Source: Candidatus Woesearchaeota archaeon (GTDB lineage Archaea > Nanobdellota > Nanobdellia > UBA10117 > ARS21). Taken from it: a stretch of 55,920 nt of DNA. Numbering within the stretch: position 1 is the stretch's first letter; every line of letters starts with the position of its first letter. The notes beneath the pieces are model-generated. The model searched no databases. It saw only the letters and a program-made list of their open reading frames with translations, and was not told the DNA's origin. The position numbers and the translations under genes are program-made. Positions 830 through 50,373 of this stretch are shown here, in pieces. The DNA lies in assembly GCA_038128845.1 (NCBI GenBank), contig JAYPKL010000003.1, forward strand, positions 1 to 55,920, written 5' to 3'.

Positions 830-903
830 TGCACCCAGAGGGATTTGAACCCGCGACCCCCTGCTTACAAGGCAGGTGCTCTACCGAACTGAGCTATGGA
901 TGC
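830..903 (-). tRNA. tRNA-Thr(TGT)
   Basis: Cloverleaf GCATCCA...TGGGTGC-A; anticodon arm CCTGC-CT TGT AA-GCAGG; T-loop TTCAAAT; one C-T mismatch in T-stem. Confidence 0.95.
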
Positions 904-3352: not shown

Positions 3353-3447
3353 ATTTATAGTCTAAAGTAAACAATAAGCTTTCAGTATAGTGTTTTTGTA
3401 AAAAATTAAATAAAAAGATTTAAAAAGTCATTATTTAAAAGTTTCTA

Positions 3448-6733: not shown

Positions 6734-7059
6734 TGAATTTCTGAACCGTTTTTGACTTTCTTTTCAGGAGAAATAAAGATTACATTTTTACCATCGTCTG
6801 CACATAATATCATTCCTTCAGAAATTTCTCCTCGCATTTTTCTTGCTGGAAGATTTACAATAAATACGGCTTGTTTTCCTTTTAAATCTTCAATTTTATA
6901 GTATTCTTTTATTCCAGATAATATTTGTCTTTTGAAAGAACCAAAATTTACTTGTAATTTATATAATTTATCTGCACCTTTTATTTCTTCAACTTTTGTA
7001 ATTTTTCCAACTCTTAAATCCAGTTTTGCAAAATCATCGATGTTAATTTCAGTTTTCAT
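6730..7059 (-). CDS. stand-alone tRNA-binding OB-fold protein (MetRS C-terminal/Trbp111/CsaA-like)
   Basis: DFAKLDLRVGKI, RQILSGI and NLPARKMRGEISEGMIL motifs. Confidence 0.9.
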   Translation of the reverse strand: MKTEINIDDFAKLDLRVGKITKVEEIKGADKLYKLQVNFGSFKRQILSGIKEYYKIEDLKGKQAVFIVNLPARKMRGEISEGMILCADDGKNVIFISPEKKVKNGSEIH

Positions 7060-26981: not shown

Positions 26982-27401
26982 ATGAAAAATAAAATAGTAC
27001 TTATTTTACACATATTATCTTTACTTGGAATTTTATTTTCCGGAATAACTATTTATGATCATTATAATACCGAACCTTCAAGTGTTTGTTTAACTGGAGG
27101 AGGATGCGATACTGCAAATAATAGTGTTTATTCTGAATTTATGGGTATTCCTGTTGGTTTCTTCGGTATACTTTGGTTTATTTTATTTTCACTTTCAATT
27201 AGCTTTAATGAACCTGAAATAACAACTCTTTTGATTTTAGGCGGAGTAACTGTTGTAGCTTATTTTATTTTTGTAGAATTATATATTCTTAGAGTTATTT
27301 GTTCAACCTGTACTTTTATACATGCAATTGTTTATTTACAATCTTTAATCGTGCTTGCTCCCTTTATGTCCAGAACCTTTAAGAGAAATAATCGGAAGTA
27401 A
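26982..27401 (+). CDS. vitamin K epoxide reductase (VKOR) family protein
   Basis: C..GGGCD...S.YS..MGIPV motif and CSTC redox pair; start moved to ATG 26982, outside tRNA-Arg. Confidence 0.9.
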   Translation: MKNKIVLILHILSLLGILFSGITIYDHYNTEPSSVCLTGGGCDTANNSVYSEFMGIPVGFFGILWFILFSLSISFNEPEITTLLILGGVTVVAYFIFVELYILRVICSTCTFIHAIVYLQSLIVLAPFMSRTFKRNNRK

Positions 27402-28508
27402 ATGTTTTACAATATCTACACTATCTTTTTGAGCATTCATAACTCTTGAAATATTTTTATAAGCGTCGGGTGCTTCGTCTAGAGTACCTTTTTCAATAGT
27501 ACCTGTAATTCCTTTCATATCTTCTTTAAATTTTTTCATAGTTATTTTTTTCTTTGCTTCAGTTCTTGATAATTTTCTTCCGGCACCATGAGACGAACTA
27601 AATAAAAATTCCGGATTACCTTTTCCAATTACTAAATAAGAACCATCTCTCATATTTGCAGGTATAACTCCTCGTTCTCCCTTTTCAGCGGGTGTTGCAC
27701 CTTTTCTATGAATATAATTTTTACCATGAGGAACTGCATGATTATGGTTTTTATTTGTCCAGATCTCATATGATAATTTTTGATTCAATATTTGTTCGAT
27801 AGAATAAATTGTTTTGTAAATAATTTCTTTTCTATTTAATAATGCAAATTCTAAACCAAATTCTAAAACATTTAGATATTCTTTTCCAACAACTGAATTT
27901 ATTTTAATTGGATGTGTTGCTTCAAATTCTTTATCAGAACCTGAACTTTTTTTCATATATTTTTCTGCAACTTTATATCCTATACCTCTTGAACCAGAGT
28001 GTACTATAATCCAAAATTCATTATTTGAATAACATAGTTCTAAAAAATGATTTCCGCTTCCCAGAGTTCCAAGATGAGAAAGAGATTTATTTTTTATAAA
28101 TTTGTAAATATCTTTATCATGAGCTCCTTTTTCAAATTTTTCTAAAAGATTATTTAATTCTTTTTTTGTTTTATCAGAAATATTTTTTGGATGATTTAAC
28201 ATACCCGTTCCCATAGGAACATTTTTCATAATTTCATCATAAATTTTTTTTGTGTTATTTTTAATTTTAGAAAGTACTTCTTCATTAATTTTTACAGCAG
28301 TCATTCCACATCCAATATCATATCCTACCCACGACGGTACAATGTAATTTTTAGTTTCTAAAACAGATCCAATAGGTGCAACATAACCAGAATGTGCATC
28401 AGGCATAAGTGCAGCATTTACAACAAAATCTTGATTAACACAATGTTCAAATTGTTCTTCAGTTGCTTTATCTATGTCAATTGCATAATTGTAAATTTTC
28501 TTTTTCAT
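27345..28508 (-). CDS. rtcB: RtcB RNA ligase, short form
   Basis: PDAH, DIGCG, LGTLGSGNHF, HSGSRG, HRKGAT, SHGAGR, DEAP motifs. Confidence 0.95.
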   Translation of the reverse strand: MKKKIYNYAIDIDKATEEQFEHCVNQDFVVNAALMPDAHSGYVAPIGSVLETKNYIVPSWVGYDIGCGMTAVKINEEVLSKIKNNTKKIYDEIMKNVPMGTGMLNHPKNISDKTKKELNNLLEKFEKGAHDKDIYKFIKNKSLSHLGTLGSGNHFLELCYSNNEFWIIVHSGSRGIGYKVAEKYMKKSSGSDKEFEATHPIKINSVVGKEYLNVLEFGLEFALLNRKEIIYKTIYSIEQILNQKLSYEIWTNKNHNHAVPHGKNYIHRKGATPAEKGERGVIPANMRDGSYLVIGKGNPEFLFSSSHGAGRKLSRTEAKKKITMKKFKEDMKGITGTIEKGTLDEAPDAYKNISRVMNAQKDSVDIVKHLLPIISLKGSGHKGSKHD

Positions 28509-29273: not shown

Positions 29274-29348
29274 GCCCCTTTAGTGTAGTCCGGTCAATCA
29301 TCCATGGTTCTCAGCCGTGTGACGCGGGTTCAAATCCCGCAAGGGGCG
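29274..29348 (+). tRNA. tRNA-Glu(CTC)
   Basis: GCCCCTT/AAGGGGC acceptor; CATGG-TT CTC AG-CCGTG; T-arm GCGGG-TTCAAAT-CCCGC. Confidence 0.95.
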
Positions 29349-29441
29349 TACTATTATTAGTGACATTTAGTGTAGTATATTTAGAATTTTTAAAAAAAGT
29401 CTAATAAATAAATTTATAAACCAATTATTGAAGGCTAAATA

Positions 29442-30251
29442 ATGGCATTATATCATCCACACGAGAAAGAACAGGTTAGAGCTATAAGATATACATTAGA
29501 AACAGCTCCGCAAATTCAAAAACAGCTTAAAGAAAAATTTGGATACGGAGAAAATATGTTCTTTGATTTAGATTTAATAGAATATAGAATTCATAATTCT
29601 CGTAAAAAAATTGCCGAAGAGTTAGATGTTAAGTCTCTTTATGGTTTAAATGAGAATATTGCTGAAGGCGCAGTAAGTTATGCTTTTAGAGGTTACGATA
29701 GTGAAGAGTTTTTACCCGAATATAAGTTCGAAGGATTGTTTGGAGAACAATTGAATGATCTAATTGAAAAGAATAGAGGTAGTATAACTTGTCGGATTTA
29801 TGGTCGGATTATGCGTCGGAAAAGTGCTGAAGCACAAGGTAAACATATTTGGAGTCTAGATGAATTAATAAGTTTACATGAAATTCGTGAAGAATCAATT
29901 GGTAAAGGTCGTTATAAGACAACACCATGTATGACTTATGTTGCTGAAAAATTTAATGAAAGACACGGAACAGAACTAACTGAAAAAGCATTAATTATGG
30001 CATATTCACAAAACAAACATCGTCTTTCTGAAGCCGGTGTTGAAATAGCTGAACCTTTTTGGAGTCTAGATAAGTTAGTAAGTTTACATGAAATTCGTGA
30101 AGAATCAATTGGTAAGGGTATTAAAAAAACTCAACCATGTATGACTTATGTTACTGAAAAATTTAATGAACGACACGGAACAGACTTTACTAAAAAAGAC
30201 TTAACAGGGATGTATTCACTCAACAAACATCGTCTTTCTGAAGAAGAATAA
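29442..30251 (+). CDS. modular repeat protein: N-terminal HTH-like domain plus 2 x 70-aa HTH/Myb-like modules
   Basis: 210-bp units start at 29850 and 30060 (WSLD..SLHEIREES.GKG..PC..YV.EKFNE.HGT..AYS.NK); paralog at 44627. Confidence 0.8.
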   Translation: MALYHPHEKEQVRAIRYTLETAPQIQKQLKEKFGYGENMFFDLDLIEYRIHNSRKKIAEELDVKSLYGLNENIAEGAVSYAFRGYDSEEFLPEYKFEGLFGEQLNDLIEKNRGSITCRIYGRIMRRKSAEAQGKHIWSLDELISLHEIREESIGKGRYKTTPCMTYVAEKFNERHGTELTEKALIMAYSQNKHRLSEAGVEIAEPFWSLDKLVSLHEIREESIGKGIKKTQPCMTYVTEKFNERHGTDFTKKDLTGMYSLNKHRLSEEE

Positions 30252-30330
30252 ATTTATTTAAACTATTACTAGTTTATTAAATCAACAGGTAAAATACTAA
30301 ATATATTTACCAATTGTCACTAACAATTCT

Positions 30331-30348
30331 AATCACGCAAGGGGCGTA
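30331..30348 (+). repeat. second copy of tRNA-Glu 3' end (att-like)
   Basis: 17/18 identity to 29333-29350. Confidence 0.85.
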
Positions 30349-30388
30349 TAATAACAATTATTATAAAGTTTGCAAACTAAATAAATTT

Positions 30389-30553
30389 ATGAAAGAAAAA
30401 TATAATACACTTGAAGAATTAATGGGAAATTTTTCATTTGATAAAAGTATTATGGAAAAACAGTTAGAGAATACTCATATGAATATCTTTGAAGTTTATA
30501 CGGGCGGCAATAGTCATATGAATATCTTTGAAGTTTATACGGGCGGTAACTGA
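30389..30553 (+). CDS. 54-aa microprotein ending in a 13-aa tandem duplication
   Basis: ATG 30389 about 29 nt after ATTATAAA; 39-bp units at 30470 and 30509 (NxHMNIFEVYTGG). Confidence 0.5.
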   Translation: MKEKYNTLEELMGNFSFDKSIMEKQLENTHMNIFEVYTGGNSHMNIFEVYTGGN

Positions 30554-30588
30554 ATCCTACTTTAAATATTAGTTTTTAATAATAAATT

Positions 30589-30616
30589 TAATTTTAGTTG
30601 AACATATTTGGATCTA
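30589..30616. repeat. 28-bp dispersed direct repeat, copy 1
   Basis: taattttagttgaacatatttRgatcta, 27/28 identical to 32312-32339. Confidence 0.85.
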
Positions 30617-30762
30617 GAAATGATACCCGTGCAGCTTGCTGCAATACAGCCCGAGATTTTCCTTTCCCATCTTAATATGTATATATAACGTAGAATCATA
30701 ACACATCTAAACAGTGTTCGTTCTTTCCCAAAATGAGATACGAAAGGGCAATTGTCACCTAG

Positions 30763-30779
30763 AATCTCGCAAGGGGCGT
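30763..30779 (+). repeat. third copy of tRNA-Glu 3' end (att-like)
   Basis: AATCTCGCAAGGGGCGT, 16/17 identity; preceded by CAATTGTCAC like the second copy. Confidence 0.85.
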
Positions 30780-30792
30780 GCAATGAGATATC

Positions 30793-31359
30793 CTATCTTT
30801 TTTTACTCAAAATATTTCCTTCTAATGGATTTTTATATGAACTTTTTGGTTTTCGGCTTTCGATTAATTTTCTCATATACTTAATTAATTTAGTGTCTAA
30901 AATCGCTCCATCAAAATTCGCATTCACTACTTCATCAAGAATCGCCCACCTAAGATCTACTTTTTTAAGATTTACTCCATCAAGATTCGCTCTTCTAAGA
31001 TTTGCCTTTCTAAGGATCGCACCTTCAAGATGAACTCCTCTAAGATCCACTTCCTTAAGATTTGTATACCGCATATTTGATGCTCCAAGATCTGCTCCCC
31101 GAATATTCACCCCTCGAAGATCAGCTCCCTGAAGATTCGCTCCCCAAAGATTTGCCTTTCTAAGATCCGCTCCTTCAAGATTCGCACCCCGAAGATCCGC
31201 TAACCCAAGATCCGATCCCCGAAGATCCGCTCCTTCAAGATTCGCTCCCCGAAGATTCGCTCCCCAAAGATACGCACCCCGAAGATACGCACCCCGAAGA
31301 TACGCTCCTTTTAGTGTTTTTAAAGAATATTCTTTTAATATATCTGCTATTGTTTTCAT
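30793..31359 (-). CDS. pentapeptide repeat protein
   Basis: About 25 consecutive A(D/N/Y)LxG-type pentapeptides, 15-bp DNA periodicity. Confidence 0.95.
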   Translation of the reverse strand: MKTIADILKEYSLKTLKGAYLRGAYLRGAYLWGANLRGANLEGADLRGSDLGLADLRGANLEGADLRKANLWGANLQGADLRGVNIRGADLGASNMRYTNLKEVDLRGVHLEGAILRKANLRRANLDGVNLKKVDLRWAILDEVVNANFDGAILDTKLIKYMRKLIESRKPKSSYKNPLEGNILSKKR

Positions 31360-31461
31360 TTTTTATATTTATTAATAATTTTATATAAAATTTTGTTTGA
31401 TGCTTAATTTTTATATTATTAAATAAATTATTTTTTATATTATAAATAATTAATATTTATT

Positions 31462-31503
31462 ATGTGCGGAACTTGTGGTTGTGACGATAAAGACGGAAAA
31501 TAA
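31462..31503 (+). CDS. 13-aa CxxCGC peptide MCGTCGCDDKDGK (not in ORF track)
   Basis: GC-rich ORF in extremely AT-rich DNA; TTTATATT 28 nt upstream; followed by a trailer shared with the repeat-protein gene. Confidence 0.45.
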   Translation: MCGTCGCDDKDGK

Positions 31504-31642
31504 GTTTATTTAAACTATTACTATTTTAGTTAACTATCAATGGTTAAGAAGAAAGATAATTATACCATAGTCAGCGAATTAATTATTAAAAATAAAATTC
31601 AAATAATATCTTATTACTAACCTAACTATGACTAGGAGAATT

Positions 31643-32308
31643 ATGAGAGGGAAACTATATCTTTCAGGCGGCGGAGATGAAAATCAAACTTATAATGCAG
31701 ATAAACAAATATTTGCCGATGTTAAAAAAATTCTTTATATACCTCTTGCATGGGAAGGAGACAAATCATACGCGTTATGCAAAAAATGGTTTGAAAATAT
31801 GATTTCAAAACATAAGCCGATTTCATATGATATGATTATTACAGGTACTACTGACAGAAATTTGAATAATTATGATTTAATATATATCGGAGGCGGCAAC
31901 ACATTTAAGCTACTTAAAGAATTAAGAGCTTCCGACTTGAGTAAAAAAATAATTGATTTCCTAAATAATGGAGGTAGCGTGTACGGAGGAAGTGCTGGTG
32001 CAATTATATGGGGAAAGCATATTGATCAAAAATACAGAAAAAAAATTATATCTAGCAGTACAGATGCAGATAAAAACAAAGTAAAACAAAGTAACACTTC
32101 TGGTTTCAACTTAGTTAAAGGATATGATATACAATGCCATTTTATAGATGACGAATTGAATGAATATATTGAATATTCAAAAAATAAGTCTGTCAAAATA
32201 CTTGCAATACCTGAAGAGAGCGTCCTAGAATTTGACGGTAAAAATTTTAGAGTTTTTGGCACTAAAAAAGTAACAATCATAGATAAAAAAAATATTTCAA
32301 AAATATAA
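31643..32308 (+). CDS. peptidase E (S51)-like class I glutamine-amidotransferase-fold protein
   Basis: LSGGG, IYIGGGNTF, GGSAGA nucleophile elbow; AGGAG SD before ATG 31643. Confidence 0.88.
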   Translation: MRGKLYLSGGGDENQTYNADKQIFADVKKILYIPLAWEGDKSYALCKKWFENMISKHKPISYDMIITGTTDRNLNNYDLIYIGGGNTFKLLKELRASDLSKKIIDFLNNGGSVYGGSAGAIIWGKHIDQKYRKKIISSSTDADKNKVKQSNTSGFNLVKGYDIQCHFIDDELNEYIEYSKNKSVKILAIPEESVLEFDGKNFRVFGTKKVTIIDKKNISKI

Positions 32309-33180: not shown

Positions 33181-33966
33181 ATGGTATATGAAAACTTGTT
33201 TCAATATACGCCAATTCAGCATGATTTAATTGCTCAAACACTTACACTTACATATACAATTATGATTGCAGCTCTTCTTTATTTTGCATTTAGTCTAAAA
33301 ACAAATGCTCCAAAATATCGTACATCTGGAATTCTTTCGATAGTTGTTATGACTTCCGCATTTATTATTTTATTTTACCAATCACAAAGCTGGCAAAATG
33401 CTTTTACCTTTAATGCAGAAATAGGAAAATATGTTTTAGATTCCGGAGCAGATTTATTCTCAAATGGATATAGATATCTTAATTGGTTGATTGATGTACC
33501 TATGTTATTATTTCAAATATTATTCATTGTAAATTTATCACAAAAAGAATTTATCACAAAAAGAAATTGGTTTTTCATTTCAGGTGCAGCAATGATATTA
33601 CTAGGTTATGTTGGTCAATTTTATGAAACAACTAATGTCAACATGTTTATTACACTTGGATTAATTTCAACTGTATTTTTCATTCATATTTTATATTTAA
33701 TTTATGGAATAATTAAAGGAGCAATTAAAGATTTATCAAAGCCGGCTGGAAAAATTATGGCAGGAATTTGGATATTATTTTTATTCTCTTGGACACTCTA
33801 TCCAATCGCATATGCAATGCCAGTATTAGGTTATGGAGAATGGGGAGTTGTTGCAAGACAAATGATTTTTTCAGTAGCAGATGTATTGTCTAAAGTAATT
33901 TATGGAATTTTACTTATGAGAGTTGGGCAATTAAGAAGTAAAGAAGACGGATATAAATATAATTAA
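33181..33966 (+). CDS. type-1 microbial rhodopsin, NDQ motif (KR2-like light-driven Na+ pump)
   Basis: 7 TM; helix C NGYRYLNWLIDVPMLLFQILF (R98, N101, D105, Q112); helix G ARQ..ADVLSKVIYG (D234, retinal K238). Confidence 0.93.
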   Translation: MVYENLFQYTPIQHDLIAQTLTLTYTIMIAALLYFAFSLKTNAPKYRTSGILSIVVMTSAFIILFYQSQSWQNAFTFNAEIGKYVLDSGADLFSNGYRYLNWLIDVPMLLFQILFIVNLSQKEFITKRNWFFISGAAMILLGYVGQFYETTNVNMFITLGLISTVFFIHILYLIYGIIKGAIKDLSKPAGKIMAGIWILFLFSWTLYPIAYAMPVLGYGEWGVVARQMIFSVADVLSKVIYGILLMRVGQLRSKEDGYKYN

Positions 33967-44466: not shown

Positions 44467-44540
44467 GCCTCGGTAGCTCAGTATGGTAGAGCGCTGCATT
44501 GGTAATGCAGAGGTCGCGAGTTCAAATCCCGCCTGGGGCA
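44467..44540 (+). tRNA. tRNA-Thr(GGT)
   Basis: GCCTCGG/CTGGGGC acceptor; CTGCA-TT GGT AA-TGCAG; A52-C62 mismatch in T-stem. Confidence 0.93.
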
Positions 44541-44549
44541 TCCAACGCA

Positions 44550-44626
44550 TAGTTTCATTTAGTGTAGTATATTTGGAATTTTTTAAAAAAAGTAAAATTT
44601 ATAAACCAATTATTGAAGGCTAAATT
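44550..44626 (+). repeat. leader/promoter homologous to 29358-29441
   Basis: TAGT..CATTTAGTGTAGTATATTT.GAATTTTT..AAAAAAAGT..AAATTTATAAACCAATTATTGAAGGCTAAAT shared by both loci. Confidence 0.9.
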
Positions 44627-45898
44627 ATGACATTATCTCATCCACACGAGCAAGAGCAGGTTAGTGCTATAAAATATACATTAGAAACAGCTCCAAAAGT
44701 TCAAAAACAACTTAAAGAAAAATTTGGATATGGAGAAAATATGTTTTTTGATTTGGACTTAATAGAATATAGAACTAAAAATTATGCTAAAGATATTGCT
44801 GAAGATTTAGATGTTAAATCTCTTTATGGTGTATCTGAAGGAGTTGCTGAACACGCAGTATGTAGCGCTTTTAGAGGTTACGATAGTGAAGAGTTTTTAC
44901 CCGAATTTCAGTTTGAAGGATTGTTTGGAAAACAACTGAATGATATAATTGAATATAATAAATATAAGATTAATGGTCAGAAAAATTACGCCAATGGTTT
45001 GGGTAAACTAACAGCTGAAGAAAGGTCCAAACTTAATCTGAAAGCTGTTGAAGCACGAGGAGACCATATTTGGAGTCTAGATGAATTAGTAAGTTTACAT
45101 AAAATTCGTAAAGAGTCAGTTGGCAAAGGTCATGATAAAACTAGACCATGTTGGAATTATGTTACTGAAAAATTTAATGAACAACACGGAACAGACCTTG
45201 GTAAAACAGCCGTATCAGTAGCATATTCAAAAAACAAACATATTCTTTCTGAAGCCGGTTTTGAAATAGCTGAACCGTTTTGGAGTTTAGATAAAATATT
45301 AAGTTTACATGAAATTCGTGAAGAGTCAGTCGGTAAAGGTCATTTTAAGAAAAAACCATGTAGGACTTATACTACTGAAAAATTTAATGAACGACATGGA
45401 ACAGACTTTACTAAAATAGAATTAAAAACGGCATATTCACGAAACAAACATCGTCTTTCTGAAGCCGGTGTTGAAATAGCTGAACCTTTTATTTGGAATC
45501 TTGACAAAATATTAAGTTTACATGAAATTCGTGAAGAGTCATTTGGCAAAGGTAATAAAAAAACAAGTCCATTTTGGACTTATGTCACTGAAGAATTTAA
45601 TGAACAACACGGAACAGACTTTACTAAACACGCATTAAGACAAGCATATAGTAAAAATAAACAACGTCTTTCTGAAGCCGGTGTTGAAATAGCTGAACCT
45701 TTTAGTTGGAATCTTGACAAAATATTAAGTTTACATAAAATTCGTAAAGAGTCATTTGGTAAAGGTCATGATAAAACTAGACCATGTTGGAATTATGTTA
45801 CTGAAAAATTTAATGAACAACACGGAACAGACCTTGGTAAAACAGCATTAAATACGGCATATTGGCGAAACAAACATATTCTTTCTGAAGAAGAATAA
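44627..45898 (+). CDS. modular repeat protein: N-terminal HTH-like domain plus 4 x 70-71-aa HTH/Myb-like modules
   Basis: Units start at 45071, 45281, 45494 and 45707 (210/213/213 bp); paralog of 29442-30251. Confidence 0.8.
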   Translation: MTLSHPHEQEQVSAIKYTLETAPKVQKQLKEKFGYGENMFFDLDLIEYRTKNYAKDIAEDLDVKSLYGVSEGVAEHAVCSAFRGYDSEEFLPEFQFEGLFGKQLNDIIEYNKYKINGQKNYANGLGKLTAEERSKLNLKAVEARGDHIWSLDELVSLHKIRKESVGKGHDKTRPCWNYVTEKFNEQHGTDLGKTAVSVAYSKNKHILSEAGFEIAEPFWSLDKILSLHEIREESVGKGHFKKKPCRTYTTEKFNERHGTDFTKIELKTAYSRNKHRLSEAGVEIAEPFIWNLDKILSLHEIREESFGKGNKKTSPFWTYVTEEFNEQHGTDFTKHALRQAYSKNKQRLSEAGVEIAEPFSWNLDKILSLHKIRKESFGKGHDKTRPCWNYVTEKFNEQHGTDLGKTALNTAYWRNKHILSEEE

Positions 45899-45958
45899 GT
45901 ATATTAATTATGCTTTTTTAAGACATTAAAGTTTAATAATATAATTAATAAATGTTAT

Positions 45959-48412: not shown

Positions 48413-49510
48413 ATGAATAAATTTTATGTGAAAAAGTTAATATTATTTTTGACATTTCTAGTATCAATATCTAGTGTTTACGCATTATCTCCGATTATAT
48501 TAGATACTAATCCTATTGATAATTCAATAAATTCCAGAGAAGCAGCTACGTTTGAAGTTACAATTATTAATAATATGAATGAACCCAAATCTTTTTTGAT
48601 GTCAGCACCATTAAGTAAATGGGACGTAACATTTTCAGACTACACTGTAAAAGTTGCCCCAAAAAATACTAAAACCATAAACATGAGATTGGCACCTCCA
48701 ATGAATTCAAACGAAGGTAAATATGCAATATTTATTAAAGCCACAGATATTAATGATCAAGAATCATCTGCTTATAATTATGCTCTTGTTGATATTACCG
48801 ATGTAATAACTGACGATAATCGGGAAGTAACTATAAATGAATCTGTAACAAAAACATTTTTTACACACAATTATAATTTTTTAATTAAAAATACAGGTAA
48901 TGTCAGATATACGGATACATACATTGATTATTTATCAGAACTTGAATATTTTTTATTTTATACAGATAACATATATGAAGTTGATCAATATGGAAAAGAC
49001 AGAGTAATTAAATTTGATTATGGATTAGATCCTAACGAAGCCATAGAAATAAATTATTCAATAAATTACTCAAAAATATATTTAATTATACTTTTAATAT
49101 CTGGAGCATTCATCGGATTCTTATACTATTATTTAAGTAGATTTAAGTTAGAAAAATCATTGGGTAAAAACAAAGATACATTTTCAATTATGCTAAAAAT
49201 TACAAATAAGTCAAAAGTTGAGCAGACAGGATTAATTGTAGAAGATTTTATACCAATGCCACTAACATTAATAAAAAATTTTGGAACAGCAATACCTGAC
49301 CAAATCATATCTTCAAGAAAAGGTACAAAATTAATATGGAAATTTGATTCATTAGCACCTAAGGAAGAGAGATTACTTTCATATGAAATAAAATCAAAAA
49401 TCCACGTAATTGGAAAATTAAATATACCTCAAGCAAACCTTACACAAAAGAAATCTGGCAAACAATTGGCAAAAATATTTTCAGGAAAATTAAATTTAAT
49501 TGGTAAATAA
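48413..49510 (+). CDS. secreted/membrane protein with beta-sandwich-like domains
   Basis: Signal peptide, internal TM, C-terminal VED.IP..W....L.PKEE. Confidence 0.6.
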   Translation: MNKFYVKKLILFLTFLVSISSVYALSPIILDTNPIDNSINSREAATFEVTIINNMNEPKSFLMSAPLSKWDVTFSDYTVKVAPKNTKTINMRLAPPMNSNEGKYAIFIKATDINDQESSAYNYALVDITDVITDDNREVTINESVTKTFFTHNYNFLIKNTGNVRYTDTYIDYLSELEYFLFYTDNIYEVDQYGKDRVIKFDYGLDPNEAIEINYSINYSKIYLIILLISGAFIGFLYYYLSRFKLEKSLGKNKDTFSIMLKITNKSKVEQTGLIVEDFIPMPLTLIKNFGTAIPDQIISSRKGTKLIWKFDSLAPKEERLLSYEIKSKIHVIGKLNIPQANLTQKKSGKQLAKIFSGKLNLIGK

Positions 49511-49549
49511 TAAATAATTTTTTAAAGTAATTATATATAACTTATTTAA

Positions 49550-49652
49550 CCCTCTGTAGCTCAATCTGGTAGAGCGCGCGACTGTAGTTGGATACTGGAA
49601 TAAAATTCCAGCAGAAATCGCGAGGTTGCTGGTTCGATTCCGGCCGGAGGGA
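49550..49652 (+). tRNA. tRNA-Tyr(GTA) with 29-nt intron at 37/38 (49588-49616)
   Basis: C1-G72 pair; BHB: CTGT/GCAG 4-bp helix, bulges AG|T and AA|A, outer TGGA/TCCA. Confidence 0.93.
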
Positions 49653-49656
49653 TTAA

Positions 49657-50373
49657 TTATTGATTAATTCCTAATGATTCATAAATATCATTTAAAGTAA
49701 GATTATATTCAACTGCGATTCCTTCATGCGACCATCCTGAATCCAATAAACTGGAAATCCAGTCTCGATCCGGTAAAGATTTGCATAATTCTTCCAAAGT
49801 TAATTCAGAATTCTGAATATCATCTAAATTTCTTACTACTGGTATATTCTGAATATCATCTAAATTTCTTACTACCGGTCTATTTCTATAAGGATTATCT
49901 ATTCCCATTACAGTATAAATTTTAGAAGGATCAATTACTTTTACATCATTAGAACCTCCAGTTACATAAAGTGCTCTAATGTCTCTATAAATTGTTTTAT
50001 CATCAACTAGATCTTCTAAACCATAAGTAGGATCTATGGATTTATTTGGATTACCTGCTGAAAAAAACTTTGTTTTTCCAAAATGATCTTCAATTGATCC
50101 GTCATGAATAGAAATATATGTAATTAAATTAGGATCTTTATTTGAAATAGAAATTTTTTCTGATATTTTTTCAATTAAACCAAACATTCTTAGTTTATGA
50201 AAAGATAATCCCTTTTCTTCATCTTTTAAATCTAAATATTTGTTCCTTGCATTAATTAAATCTTCTTCAGATAAATCTACATAGTGTTCATTATCTCTAA
50301 CATAACTTTGACCAATACCGGATTCTCCAGTATGTGAATGAGCTGAACTAACTTTAAATGTTACATATGTCAT
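49657..50373 (-). CDS. hypothetical protein with a 12-aa internal duplication and C-terminal HTH-like segment
   Basis: PVVRNLDDIQN x2 (36-bp units at 49810 and 49846); stop 4 nt from the tRNA-Tyr 3' end. Confidence 0.6.
   Translation of the reverse strand: MTYVTFKVSSAHSHTGESGIGQSYVRDNEHYVDLSEEDLINARNKYLDLKDEEKGLSFHKLRMFGLIEKISEKISISNKDPNLITYISIHDGSIEDHFGKTKFFSAGNPNKSIDPTYGLEDLVDDKTIYRDIRALYVTGGSNDVKVIDPSKIYTVMGIDNPYRNRPVVRNLDDIQNIPVVRNLDDIQNSELTLEELCKSLPDRDWISSLLDSGWSHEGIAVEYNLTLNDIYESLGINQ

Follow-up and report, generated by a model that had tools for sequence, protein, structure and literature searches.

The present analysis concerns a stretch of 55,920 nucleotides (nt) of contig JAYPKL010000003.1 from a Candidatus Woesearchaeota archaeon (assembly GCA_038128845.1), referred to below as the window. 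The 55.9-kb window is AT-rich, with a GC content of about 26%. It contains two genes of one family, each located just downstream of a tRNA gene, tRNA-Glu(CTC) in the first case and tRNA-Thr(GGT) in the second. The genes are co-oriented and lie 15 kb apart; the proteins encoded, P0001 and P0002, are 68% identical, and the 5′ ends of the genes are 86% identical in DNA. The features of the two loci are given below, where att denotes an attachment site, ORF an open reading frame and aa amino acids. The tRNA coordinates are those of the Rfam placement, and the ARAGORN calls extend a few flanking bases further.

29274-29348, + strand: tRNA-Glu(CTC) (Rfam, 52 bits; also ARAGORN), the proposed primary attachment site
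29349..29441, + strand: 5′ non-coding part of cassette 1, comprising the 9-nt start TACTATTAT, then the conserved block TAGTGACATTTAGTGTAGTATATTT, then a TATA-like box
29413-29420, + strand: TATA-like box of cassette 1, TTTATAAA
29442..30251, + strand: family gene copy 1, P0001, 269 aa (ORF, translation)
29844-30053 and 30054-30248, + strand: two 70-aa repeats of P0001, three/four-helix, preceded by an N-terminal helical domain
30252..30346, + strand: 3′ tail of cassette 1, ending in att copy 1
30327-30346, + strand: att copy 1, TTCTAATCA-CGCAAGGGGCG, matching tRNA-Glu from the T-loop through the 3′ end at about 20/22 nt
30347..30778, + strand: cassette 2, with a small ORF (30389-30553), ending in att copy 2 (core 30768-30778)
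44467-44540, + strand: tRNA-Thr(GGT) (Rfam, 67 bits), the proposed second attachment site, with an A52-C62 mismatch
44541..44626, + strand: 5′ non-coding part of the Thr-locus cassette, comprising TCCAACGCA, then TAGTTTCATTTAGTGTAGTATATTTGG, then a TATA-like box (44598-44605)
44627..45898, + strand: family gene copy 2, P0002, 423 aa (ORF, repeats D2/D4)
45065-45274, 45275-45484, 45488-45697 and 45701-45895, + strand: four 70-aa repeats of P0002
45899..45945, + strand: distal edge of the tRNA-Thr slot, without a tail and without an att copy

Two tRNA junctions and the tRNA-Thr slot

The discriminator bases are G29348 in tRNA-Glu and A44540 in tRNA-Thr. The att core of tRNA-Glu consists of its last 11 nt, CGCAAGGGGCG (29338-29348), and the 3′ end of tRNA-Thr(GGT) reads CGCCTGGGGCA (44530-44540). 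Past the discriminators, pairwise alignment gives a T common to both loci, followed by eight bases that are unlike (TACTATTAT vs TCCAACGCA). Homology is restored from TAGT, at 29358 and 44550, so that an earlier sequence-only reading, which had placed the start of homology 9 nt past both discriminators, agrees with the alignment and with the repeat finder. The latter reports a repeat of 76 nt (D5) with 82% identity between the loci; the upstream block as a whole, about 85 nt, is 83.7% identical, and the homology extends over the whole gene. Within the window, an exact 19-mer of this leader is confined to the two loci, hence the match is not a matter of chance.

The sequence-only reading also described a motif shared by the two tRNAs, GTTCAAATCCCGC-NN-GGGGC-R-T. 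The motif is correct, but only its CCGC and GGGGC parts are specific to the Glu/Thr pair: GTTCAAATC is a generic T-loop present in seven of the ten window tRNAs, and the base after the tRNA is T for every tRNA of the window. The unusual pairing noted in tRNA-Thr(GGT) is present as described. Its T stem, GCGAG/CCCGC, contains the A52-C62 mismatch, and the acceptor stem has two G-U pairs, T4-G69 and G6-T67. A replacement of the tRNA-Thr 3′ end by the cassette, which had been suggested on this basis, is not supported, the Thr-specific C66, T67 and A73 being retained. Relatives lacking the cassette had been expected to show T62 and fewer wobbles. Among the related loci (numbered with the prefix L), the mismatch is found in L056, where an unrelated gene occupies the slot, and in L057/L058, which indicates that it is old in the lineage and independent of the present cassette. 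The distant Woesearchaeote L003 has a tRNA-Thr without the cassette in which both G-U pairs are likewise found; its T stem is fully paired, with T62.

The tRNA-Thr slot is polymorphic. In L056, which belongs to the same species level and has flanks about 96% identical to those of the window, the slot is occupied by an unrelated 529-aa ORF; BLAST homology between the two stops at 44541 and returns at 45946. In the comparison with L057, which together with L058 represents a more distant relative without the family gene, BLAST homology stops at 44540 and returns at 45916. Homology with relatives in which the slot is otherwise filled ends where the intact tRNA gene ends, as would be the case after insertion at a tRNA 3′ end. 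The sequence of tRNA-Thr(GGT) is identical in L013, and its 3′ half is the same in L056-L058. Between the window and L013/L012, the flanks are 96% and the tRNA 100% identical, with values of 72% for the leader and 82% for the gene. In L057-L064 the tRNA-Thr slot is filled by a pentapeptide-repeat gene; a gene of pentapeptide-repeat type is also present in the tRNA-Glu island of the window.

Cassette ends and integrases in related loci

Downstream of tRNA-Glu, the core CGCAAGGGGCG is repeated twice, at 30336 and 30768, against a chance expectation of 0.02. The junction found after tRNA-Thr in the window, TCCAACGCA-TAGTTTCATTTAGTGTAGTATATTTG, follows tRNA-Glu in L008, with 35/35 nt identical. 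In the syntenic 447-kb contig L044, TCCAACGCA and the start of the leader are also located after tRNA-Glu, the leader having an internal deletion. No tRNA is present in L009, where CGCAAGGGGCG-TCAAACGGA-leader is found on either side of the family gene. As the same spacer and leader follow tRNA-Thr, tRNA-Glu and bare cores, the 9-nt “spacer” represents the first bases of the cassette itself. The idea that a distance of 9 nt is measured from the tRNA is not supported: these bases belong to the cassette, and the junction lies at the discriminator. The corresponding block of other family members begins 0-8 nt after the tRNA (L040, L028), and L010 and L012 differ by 2 nt. A role of the spacer as the overlap region of a recombinase was also rejected, given that attL and distal-junction spacers are unlike within one island in the window, L044 and L013.

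The upstream block of cassette 1 recurs in L008, L009 and L044, and the conserved tail of about 95 nt, which follows the gene and ends in CGCAAGGGGCG, in L009, L013 and L044. Locus L013 has the order tRNA-Thr with its own CGCCTGGGGCA, gene, conserved tail and Glu-type core CGCAAGGGGCG, an order that would result from the entry of a Glu-type cassette at tRNA-Thr serving as a secondary site. Bare 11-nt cores also bound unrelated cassettes, at 30336 and 30768 in the window and at 11085 in L044. The sequence after any core belongs to the next cassette, which places the crossover at or next to the discriminator. Among the att copies, tRNA position 62 varies and positions 63-73 are invariant, so that the crossover must be located 3′ of position 62.

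The lineage possesses a family of integrases directed to tRNA ends. A 441-aa tyrosine recombinase (Pfam Phage_integrase, 4.5e-23) is encoded immediately downstream of the gene in more distant family loci. Six contigs show the family gene, about 210 nt and the integrase in succession, and the attP between the two genes holds CCCGTTGGCG, the 3′ end of tRNA-Asn. In L050, tRNA-Asn is joined at exactly this core to an identical integrase-side arm; sharing both core and arm, the two junctions constitute an attP/attL pair for tRNA-Asn. Relatives of the integrase are found directly after tRNA-Asn (L050, L065-67) and after tRNA-Asp (attL, L045/46). In a sister element (P0078 integrase; L047-49), the attP just upstream of int is CCCTCTGGGTGCA, the 3′ end of tRNA-Thr(TGT). 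The attP cores of this integrase family thus correspond to the last 10-13 nt of tRNAs. They are located 10-100 nt upstream of an intact int, and int is also intact in the integrated L050, L045 and L065-67. Since attP lies outside int and the gene survives integration, the elements are not of the SSV (suicidal) type. The motif GGCG|TCCAAAC recurs beside the integrases and resembles the window junction GGGGCA|TCCAAC.

Two further observations concern the attP regions. The sequence CCCTCTGGGTGCA (L047, about 6998-7010; also L048 and L049) equals the last 13 nt of the window tRNA-Thr(TGT) (830-842, minus strand) and includes T64, the source of a C50-U64 mismatch in the T stem of that tRNA; no insert adjoins tRNA-Thr(TGT) in the window. 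In L017 (5647-5858; also in L030, L051-53 and L055) and in L050 (2681-2846), three consecutive motifs resembling tRNA 3′ ends were found, CAGGGGGCGT, CCCGTTGGCGT and AAAGGGGCGTCCAAAC. The middle one, CCCGTTGGCGT, is the functional tRNA-Asn core, as the matching attL is seen in L050. The other two may be scars, or they may serve as accessory binding sites or alternative cores.

Origin of the cassettes and comparison with known systems

It is probable that both genes are cargo cassettes residing in flexible slots that arose in a marine Woesearchaeota chromosome by tyrosine-recombinase integration at the extreme 3′ ends of tRNA genes. The loci have the anatomy of such slots, with precise junctions and polymorphic content, and a family of integrases targeting tRNA ends occurs in the lineage. 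It seems that an integrase of this kind moved these particular cassettes. The arrangement is of a known kind, namely a tRNA-seeded flexible island with integrase-less cassettes, in a lineage where such islands have hardly been described.

According to this scheme, the recombination core would be the last 11 or so nt of tRNA-Glu(CTC), CGCAAGGGGCG, with a crossover at the discriminator or just past it. A cassette would start at the base after the discriminator and bring its own copy of the core at the 3′ end, and repeated insertions would build up an array downstream of the tRNA. The end of tRNA-Thr(GGT), CGC-CT-GGGGC-A-T, would be similar enough to serve as a secondary site, which would account for the same type of cassette, with the same first 9 nt, after both tRNAs. 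What stands of the site-specific targeting assumed in the sequence-only reading is insertion at a tRNA 3′ end and the use of two tRNAs with similar 3′ ends by one cassette type. The tail and the distal att of the Thr locus would have been lost later in the window genome, fixing the cassette in place. As the cassettes encode no integrase, one would be needed in trans, and its likely donor would be an element like the integrase-bearing ones of about 9-10 kb in related Woesearchaeota. Alternatively, the cassettes may be the remains of such elements after deletion.

Several results weigh against this interpretation. No copy of CGCCTGGGGCA or CGCAAGGGGCG was found downstream of tRNA-Thr in the window, as the sequence-only reading had already remarked; the Thr-locus cassette has no bounding att copy in the window, L010, L012 or L056, and the distal breakpoints of the slot fall at no single fixed position. 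No circular or excised form of a cassette was observed. A scan of the 40 larger ORFs of the window, with both islands included, gave no match to Phage_integrase, and a tblastn search with six integrases against all frames of the whole window and of the 21-kb syntenic locus L044 gave only matches with E > 0.5. The related loci sampled did not include an integrase directed to tRNA-Glu(CTC) or tRNA-Thr(GGT), with CGCAAGGGGCG or CGCCTGGGGCA as its attP. The position of the family gene is also unlike that in the integrase elements sampled: there it is found on the P-arm side, oriented towards attP, and in the window it directly follows the core. Moreover, the family gene is found among core genes, with neither a tRNA nor an att (L005-7, L068-69), and 5′ of tRNA-His (L024, L031, L070-72). 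In favour of the interpretation, loci independent of one another have the family gene or its arrays beside tRNA Glu, Thr, Asn, Leu, Asp and His.

A different explanation does without site-specific recombination and ascribes the two loci to segmental duplication, ectopic homologous recombination or gene conversion between the paralogs 15 kb apart. The homology would stem from the genes themselves and from the similar 3′ ends of the tRNAs, which have 13 + 5 nt in common, and the 9-nt offset would be inherited and not targeted. The co-orientation of the paralogs, the identity of their 5′ ends and the lack of a distal att at the Thr locus in the window agree with it. The two tRNAs indeed have GTTCAAATCCCGC and GGGGC in common, but recombination within GTTCAAATCCCGC would have produced a chimeric tRNA-Thr, and C66, T67 and A73 are intact. 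A grouping of the family genes by tRNA site was not seen, which counts for the cassette interpretation, but a mosaic of this sort would arise by conversion as well; conversion, however, does not place bare 11-nt cores around unrelated cassettes, an unrelated gene at the same left breakpoint in L056 or a Glu-type core at the Thr locus of L013. The family of tRNA-end-specific integrases in the lineage also speaks against this explanation, which we consider improbable. Ectopic recombination between paralogs may have been a contributor, leaving the bare cores and the L056 gene unexplained.

It is very improbable that the family protein itself directs the insertion, so that each unit would be a homing-type or self-targeting mini-element whose sole gene has a DNA-binding or recombination function. 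Such an element would explain the frequent position of the family gene as the first one after a tRNA or an att core, and a unit of about 1 kb, composed of core, leader, gene and tail, does recur without any other gene in L009 and the window. However, other cassettes with the same cores lack the family gene. The gene adjoins attP in the P0073 elements, but the sister integrase elements (P0078) do without it, and it is also found in non-tRNA core contexts. The multi-domain, DNA-binding-like architecture with a variable number of repeats is in line with self-targeting; the protein, however, is all-helical, and a catalytic domain was not detected with Pfam, PHROGs, a PDB sequence search or Foldseek. 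A functional coupling with the tRNA, in which the block would be a trailer, terminator or fixed-distance regulatory site kept by selection and not by the mechanics of insertion, can hardly be upheld. The block is T-rich like other tRNA trailers of the window and has the 11-mer TTTAGTGTAGT in common with a 5′ segment of tRNA-Glu. However, it is also found after bare att cores without a tRNA (L009), is absent after the same tRNA-Thr in L056-L058, has no Rfam match and no stable fold (z = 0.57), and lies at varying distances in other family members.

Distant loci of the family provide a second kind of cassette boundary. There, an invariant 24-nt repeat, GTTTTGAATTAGAGATGTTTAAGT, separates cassettes of one or two genes. 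It is present in L014, L016, L017, L022, L023, L025, L026, L037, L039 and L068-72 (for example, at 3382, 3894 and 4743 in L017). Its borders are sharp, and 31 distinct contexts were counted in which it connects shuffled modules on the left and right; nearly all copies are co-oriented. Arrays ending at tRNA 3′ ends keep one half of GTTTTGAATTAGAGATGTTTAAGT there, and L023 differs from L026 in the inversion of one cassette along with its GTTTTGAATTAGAGATGTTTAAGT. No fold is predicted for the repeat (z = 0.4-0.6). Because of the behaviour of these arrays, which are located outside the window, a broader interpretation can be put forward, although it appears doubtful: the loci could belong to a cassette-capture system of marine Woesearchaeota, integron-like in its working and built differently, with the Myb-like family protein as a site-binding accessory factor. 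In such a system, integrase-less cassettes of one or two genes may end in the 11-nt core from a tRNA 3′ end (window lineage) or in GTTTTGAATTAGAGATGTTTAAGT (sister lineage), and they may be stacked at tRNA 3′ ends and inside the integrase-bearing elements of about 9-10 kb, being shuffled between these sites.

Similar known systems include the non-suicidal (classical, pNOB8-like) archaeal integrases, such as those of SNJ2 and of pT26-2-related elements, for which attB is a tRNA 3′ end and the tRNA stays intact (PMC8371274). Archaeal tyrosine recombinases prefer tRNA 3′ ends, their att can be limited to the acceptor end, their targets switch among tRNAs, and tandem integrations and integrase-less remnants are common (PMC8371274). 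The same traits are found here, namely a very short att core confined to the acceptor end, int intact beside attL, related integrases on different tRNAs (Asn, Asp and Thr(TGT)), tandem insertions and remnants without an integrase. Unlike the elements of that review (PMC8371274), those described here belong to a marine DPANN host, Woesearchaeota, which is not mentioned in it; the window units also differ in being about 0.4-1 kb long, with one gene and no integrase, and one cassette type occurs on two tRNAs. Like the tycheposon islands of Prochlorococcus (bioRxiv 10.1101/2020.12.28.424599), the islands are flexible, directly beside specific tRNA genes and situated in a streamlined marine microbe. 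Partial tRNA copies between successive insertions, a tRNA-proximal position of the newest insertion, degenerate remnants and a content varying between close strains are also common to both. In contrast to tycheposons, the host is an archaeon, the repeats have about 11-22 nt instead of about 40 nt, and the cassettes are single and small, without an integrase or replication module. The likeness to tycheposons is one of island anatomy only.

Cis-mobilisable elements (CIMEs), known from Streptococcus ICESt1/3, are integrase-less elements flanked by att sites that undergo tandem accretion. The window cassettes resemble them as short att-bounded elements without an integrase, arranged in tandem at the 3′ end of a tRNA or gene and presumably mobilised in trans. 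They differ in their archaeal host and much smaller size. Integrons have been reported in archaeal metagenome-assembled genomes (PMC9668308). As in integrons, the cassettes are small, have mostly one gene and are each terminated by a recombination site; there is one primary insertion site, and the order and content of the cassettes vary between close strains. Unlike in integrons, the junction is a copy of a tRNA 3′ end, or an invariant non-folding 24-nt repeat in distant relatives, and not a folded attC with a GTTRRRY core; there is no IntI-type integrase in the window, and the family cassettes carry their own TATA-like promoter. By sequence inspection, the R″/R′ cores are absent from the window tail despite its short hairpins (z = -6).

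Mobile elements of DPANN archaea and the sources of their genome flexibility are poorly documented, and a full-text literature search, judged by titles and abstracts, yielded no account of an integrase or tRNA insertion in Woesearchaeota. The window and the related contigs supply a concrete att core, tRNA-end-specific integrases with attP/attL pairs, and polymorphic slots. The slots and cores could be used to trace gene flow in natural Woesearchaeota populations, and they are a possible base for genetic tools relying on site-specific integration in a lineage that has none. An orphan and fast-diversifying family of DNA-binding-like proteins tied to such slots is also brought to notice.

The family protein and neighbouring features

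The family is an orphan one. It comprises 72 clusters at 90% identity, all from marine metagenomes or Woesearchaeota, and a profile search at E <= 1e-3 retrieved 235 representatives. The named genomes holding relatives are only marine Candidatus Woesearchaeota metagenome-assembled genomes, and neither a relative of the protein nor an exact copy of the 24-nt repeat was found in the viral contigs searched. The architecture consists of a conserved helical N-domain, Gly-rich repeats in many homologs, and then one to four helical repeats of 70 aa. One repeat was modelled by AlphaFold2 with confidence as a helical bundle (pLDDT 91); its best Foldseek matches are to small domains that bind DNA, namely TEA, homeodomain, GT-1 trihelix and winged helix, all weak (E > 0.1). 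The match to Myb_DNA-bind_5 (E = 6e-4) is below the Pfam cutoff, and the distant member P0136 passes the Pfam threshold for Myb_DNA-bind_4 (7.6e-8). Nothing significant as to function was obtained with Pfam, PHROGs, the PDB sequence search or Foldseek. An identity of the Gly-rich repeats with NUMOD3 or a homing endonuclease was considered and found unsupported, the matches being weak ones to KGG repeats alone. Most likely, the family encodes a sequence-specific DNA-binding protein with a helix-turn-helix-like N-domain, KGG-like Gly-rich repeats in homologs and one to four Myb/SANT-like repeats; it could act as a regulator or as an accessory factor of recombination.

A TATA-like box is conserved in the family cassettes about 22 nt before the ATG, which suggests a leaderless mRNA, so the conserved “leader” is a promoter region and not an mRNA leader. 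Tested as a structured RNA, it gave no Rfam match and no stable fold (z = 0.57). Its promoter-proximal part is kept even in homologs with 35% identity. The exact 11-mer TTTAGTGTAGT occurs in the window only at 29279-29289 (the 5′ part of tRNA-Glu, on the D-arm side), 29366-29376 and 44558-44568. A rough estimate puts the chance at about 0.01, and a like resemblance exists in the distant group; the 11-mer could be a fragment of a tRNA 5′ part or a common binding motif.

In L005-L007 (for example, L007 3361-4915), the family gene is situated between a methyltransferase gene and the gene of deoxyhypusine synthase, with no tRNA or att nearby. The promoter block there, AAAAAGGTCTAATAAATAAATTTATAAACC, overlaps the methyltransferase stop codon and differs by one base from the promoter-proximal block of the tRNA-Glu locus of the window (about 29393-29422). 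This context may point to a chromosomal source of the cassette, or else to a capture event. In another lineage (L070-L072, L024, L031 and L043), the family gene is the first one on the 5′ side of tRNA-His, in divergent orientation, and is followed by variable repeat-bounded cassettes and then by DNA polymerase X; this is a flexible slot away from a tRNA 3′ end.

The remaining features of the tRNA-Glu island and the neighbouring genes are as follows.

27345-28508, - strand: RtcB tRNA-splicing ligase gene
30779..32298, strand not assigned: rest of the tRNA-Glu flexible island (Pfam, repeat D11, BLAST against L044)
30793-31359, - strand: pentapeptide-repeat gene within the island, with a 15-nt DNA periodicity
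31492-31533: tail-like remnant (repeat D11)
31628-32308: peptidase S51 gene (Pfam)
49550-49652, + strand: tRNA-Tyr(GTA), with a 29-nt intron after position 37 and a C1-G72 pair

BLAST homology between the window and L044 returns at 32299. The cassette 1 tail, treated as single-stranded DNA (30249-30370), is predicted to form five short hairpins (z = -6 against shuffles), one part of which is the dyad AATTGT-N5-ACAATT, about 10 nt before the att core; a terminator or a site for protein binding could be present here. The small ORF of cassette 2 contains a 39-nt tandem duplication (30470-30547). The intron-containing tRNA-Tyr(GTA) was found by Rfam and by aragorn -i and was missed by ARAGORN with default settings. 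A host of the Prochlorococcus type, to which the AT-richness might have pointed, was rejected on the basis of this intron, the RtcB gene and the Woesearchaeota origin of the named genomes with relatives. Repeat D8 (49509-49577), considered as a partial copy of tRNA-Thr acting as a distal att, is in fact the generic D-arm of this tRNA-Tyr. A gene of the bacteriorhodopsin family (33181-33966, + strand; Pfam, 1.6e-43) lies a few kb past the tRNA-Glu island and is kept in L044, and a 36-nt tandem duplication (49810-49881) was noted in the ORF 49657-50373.

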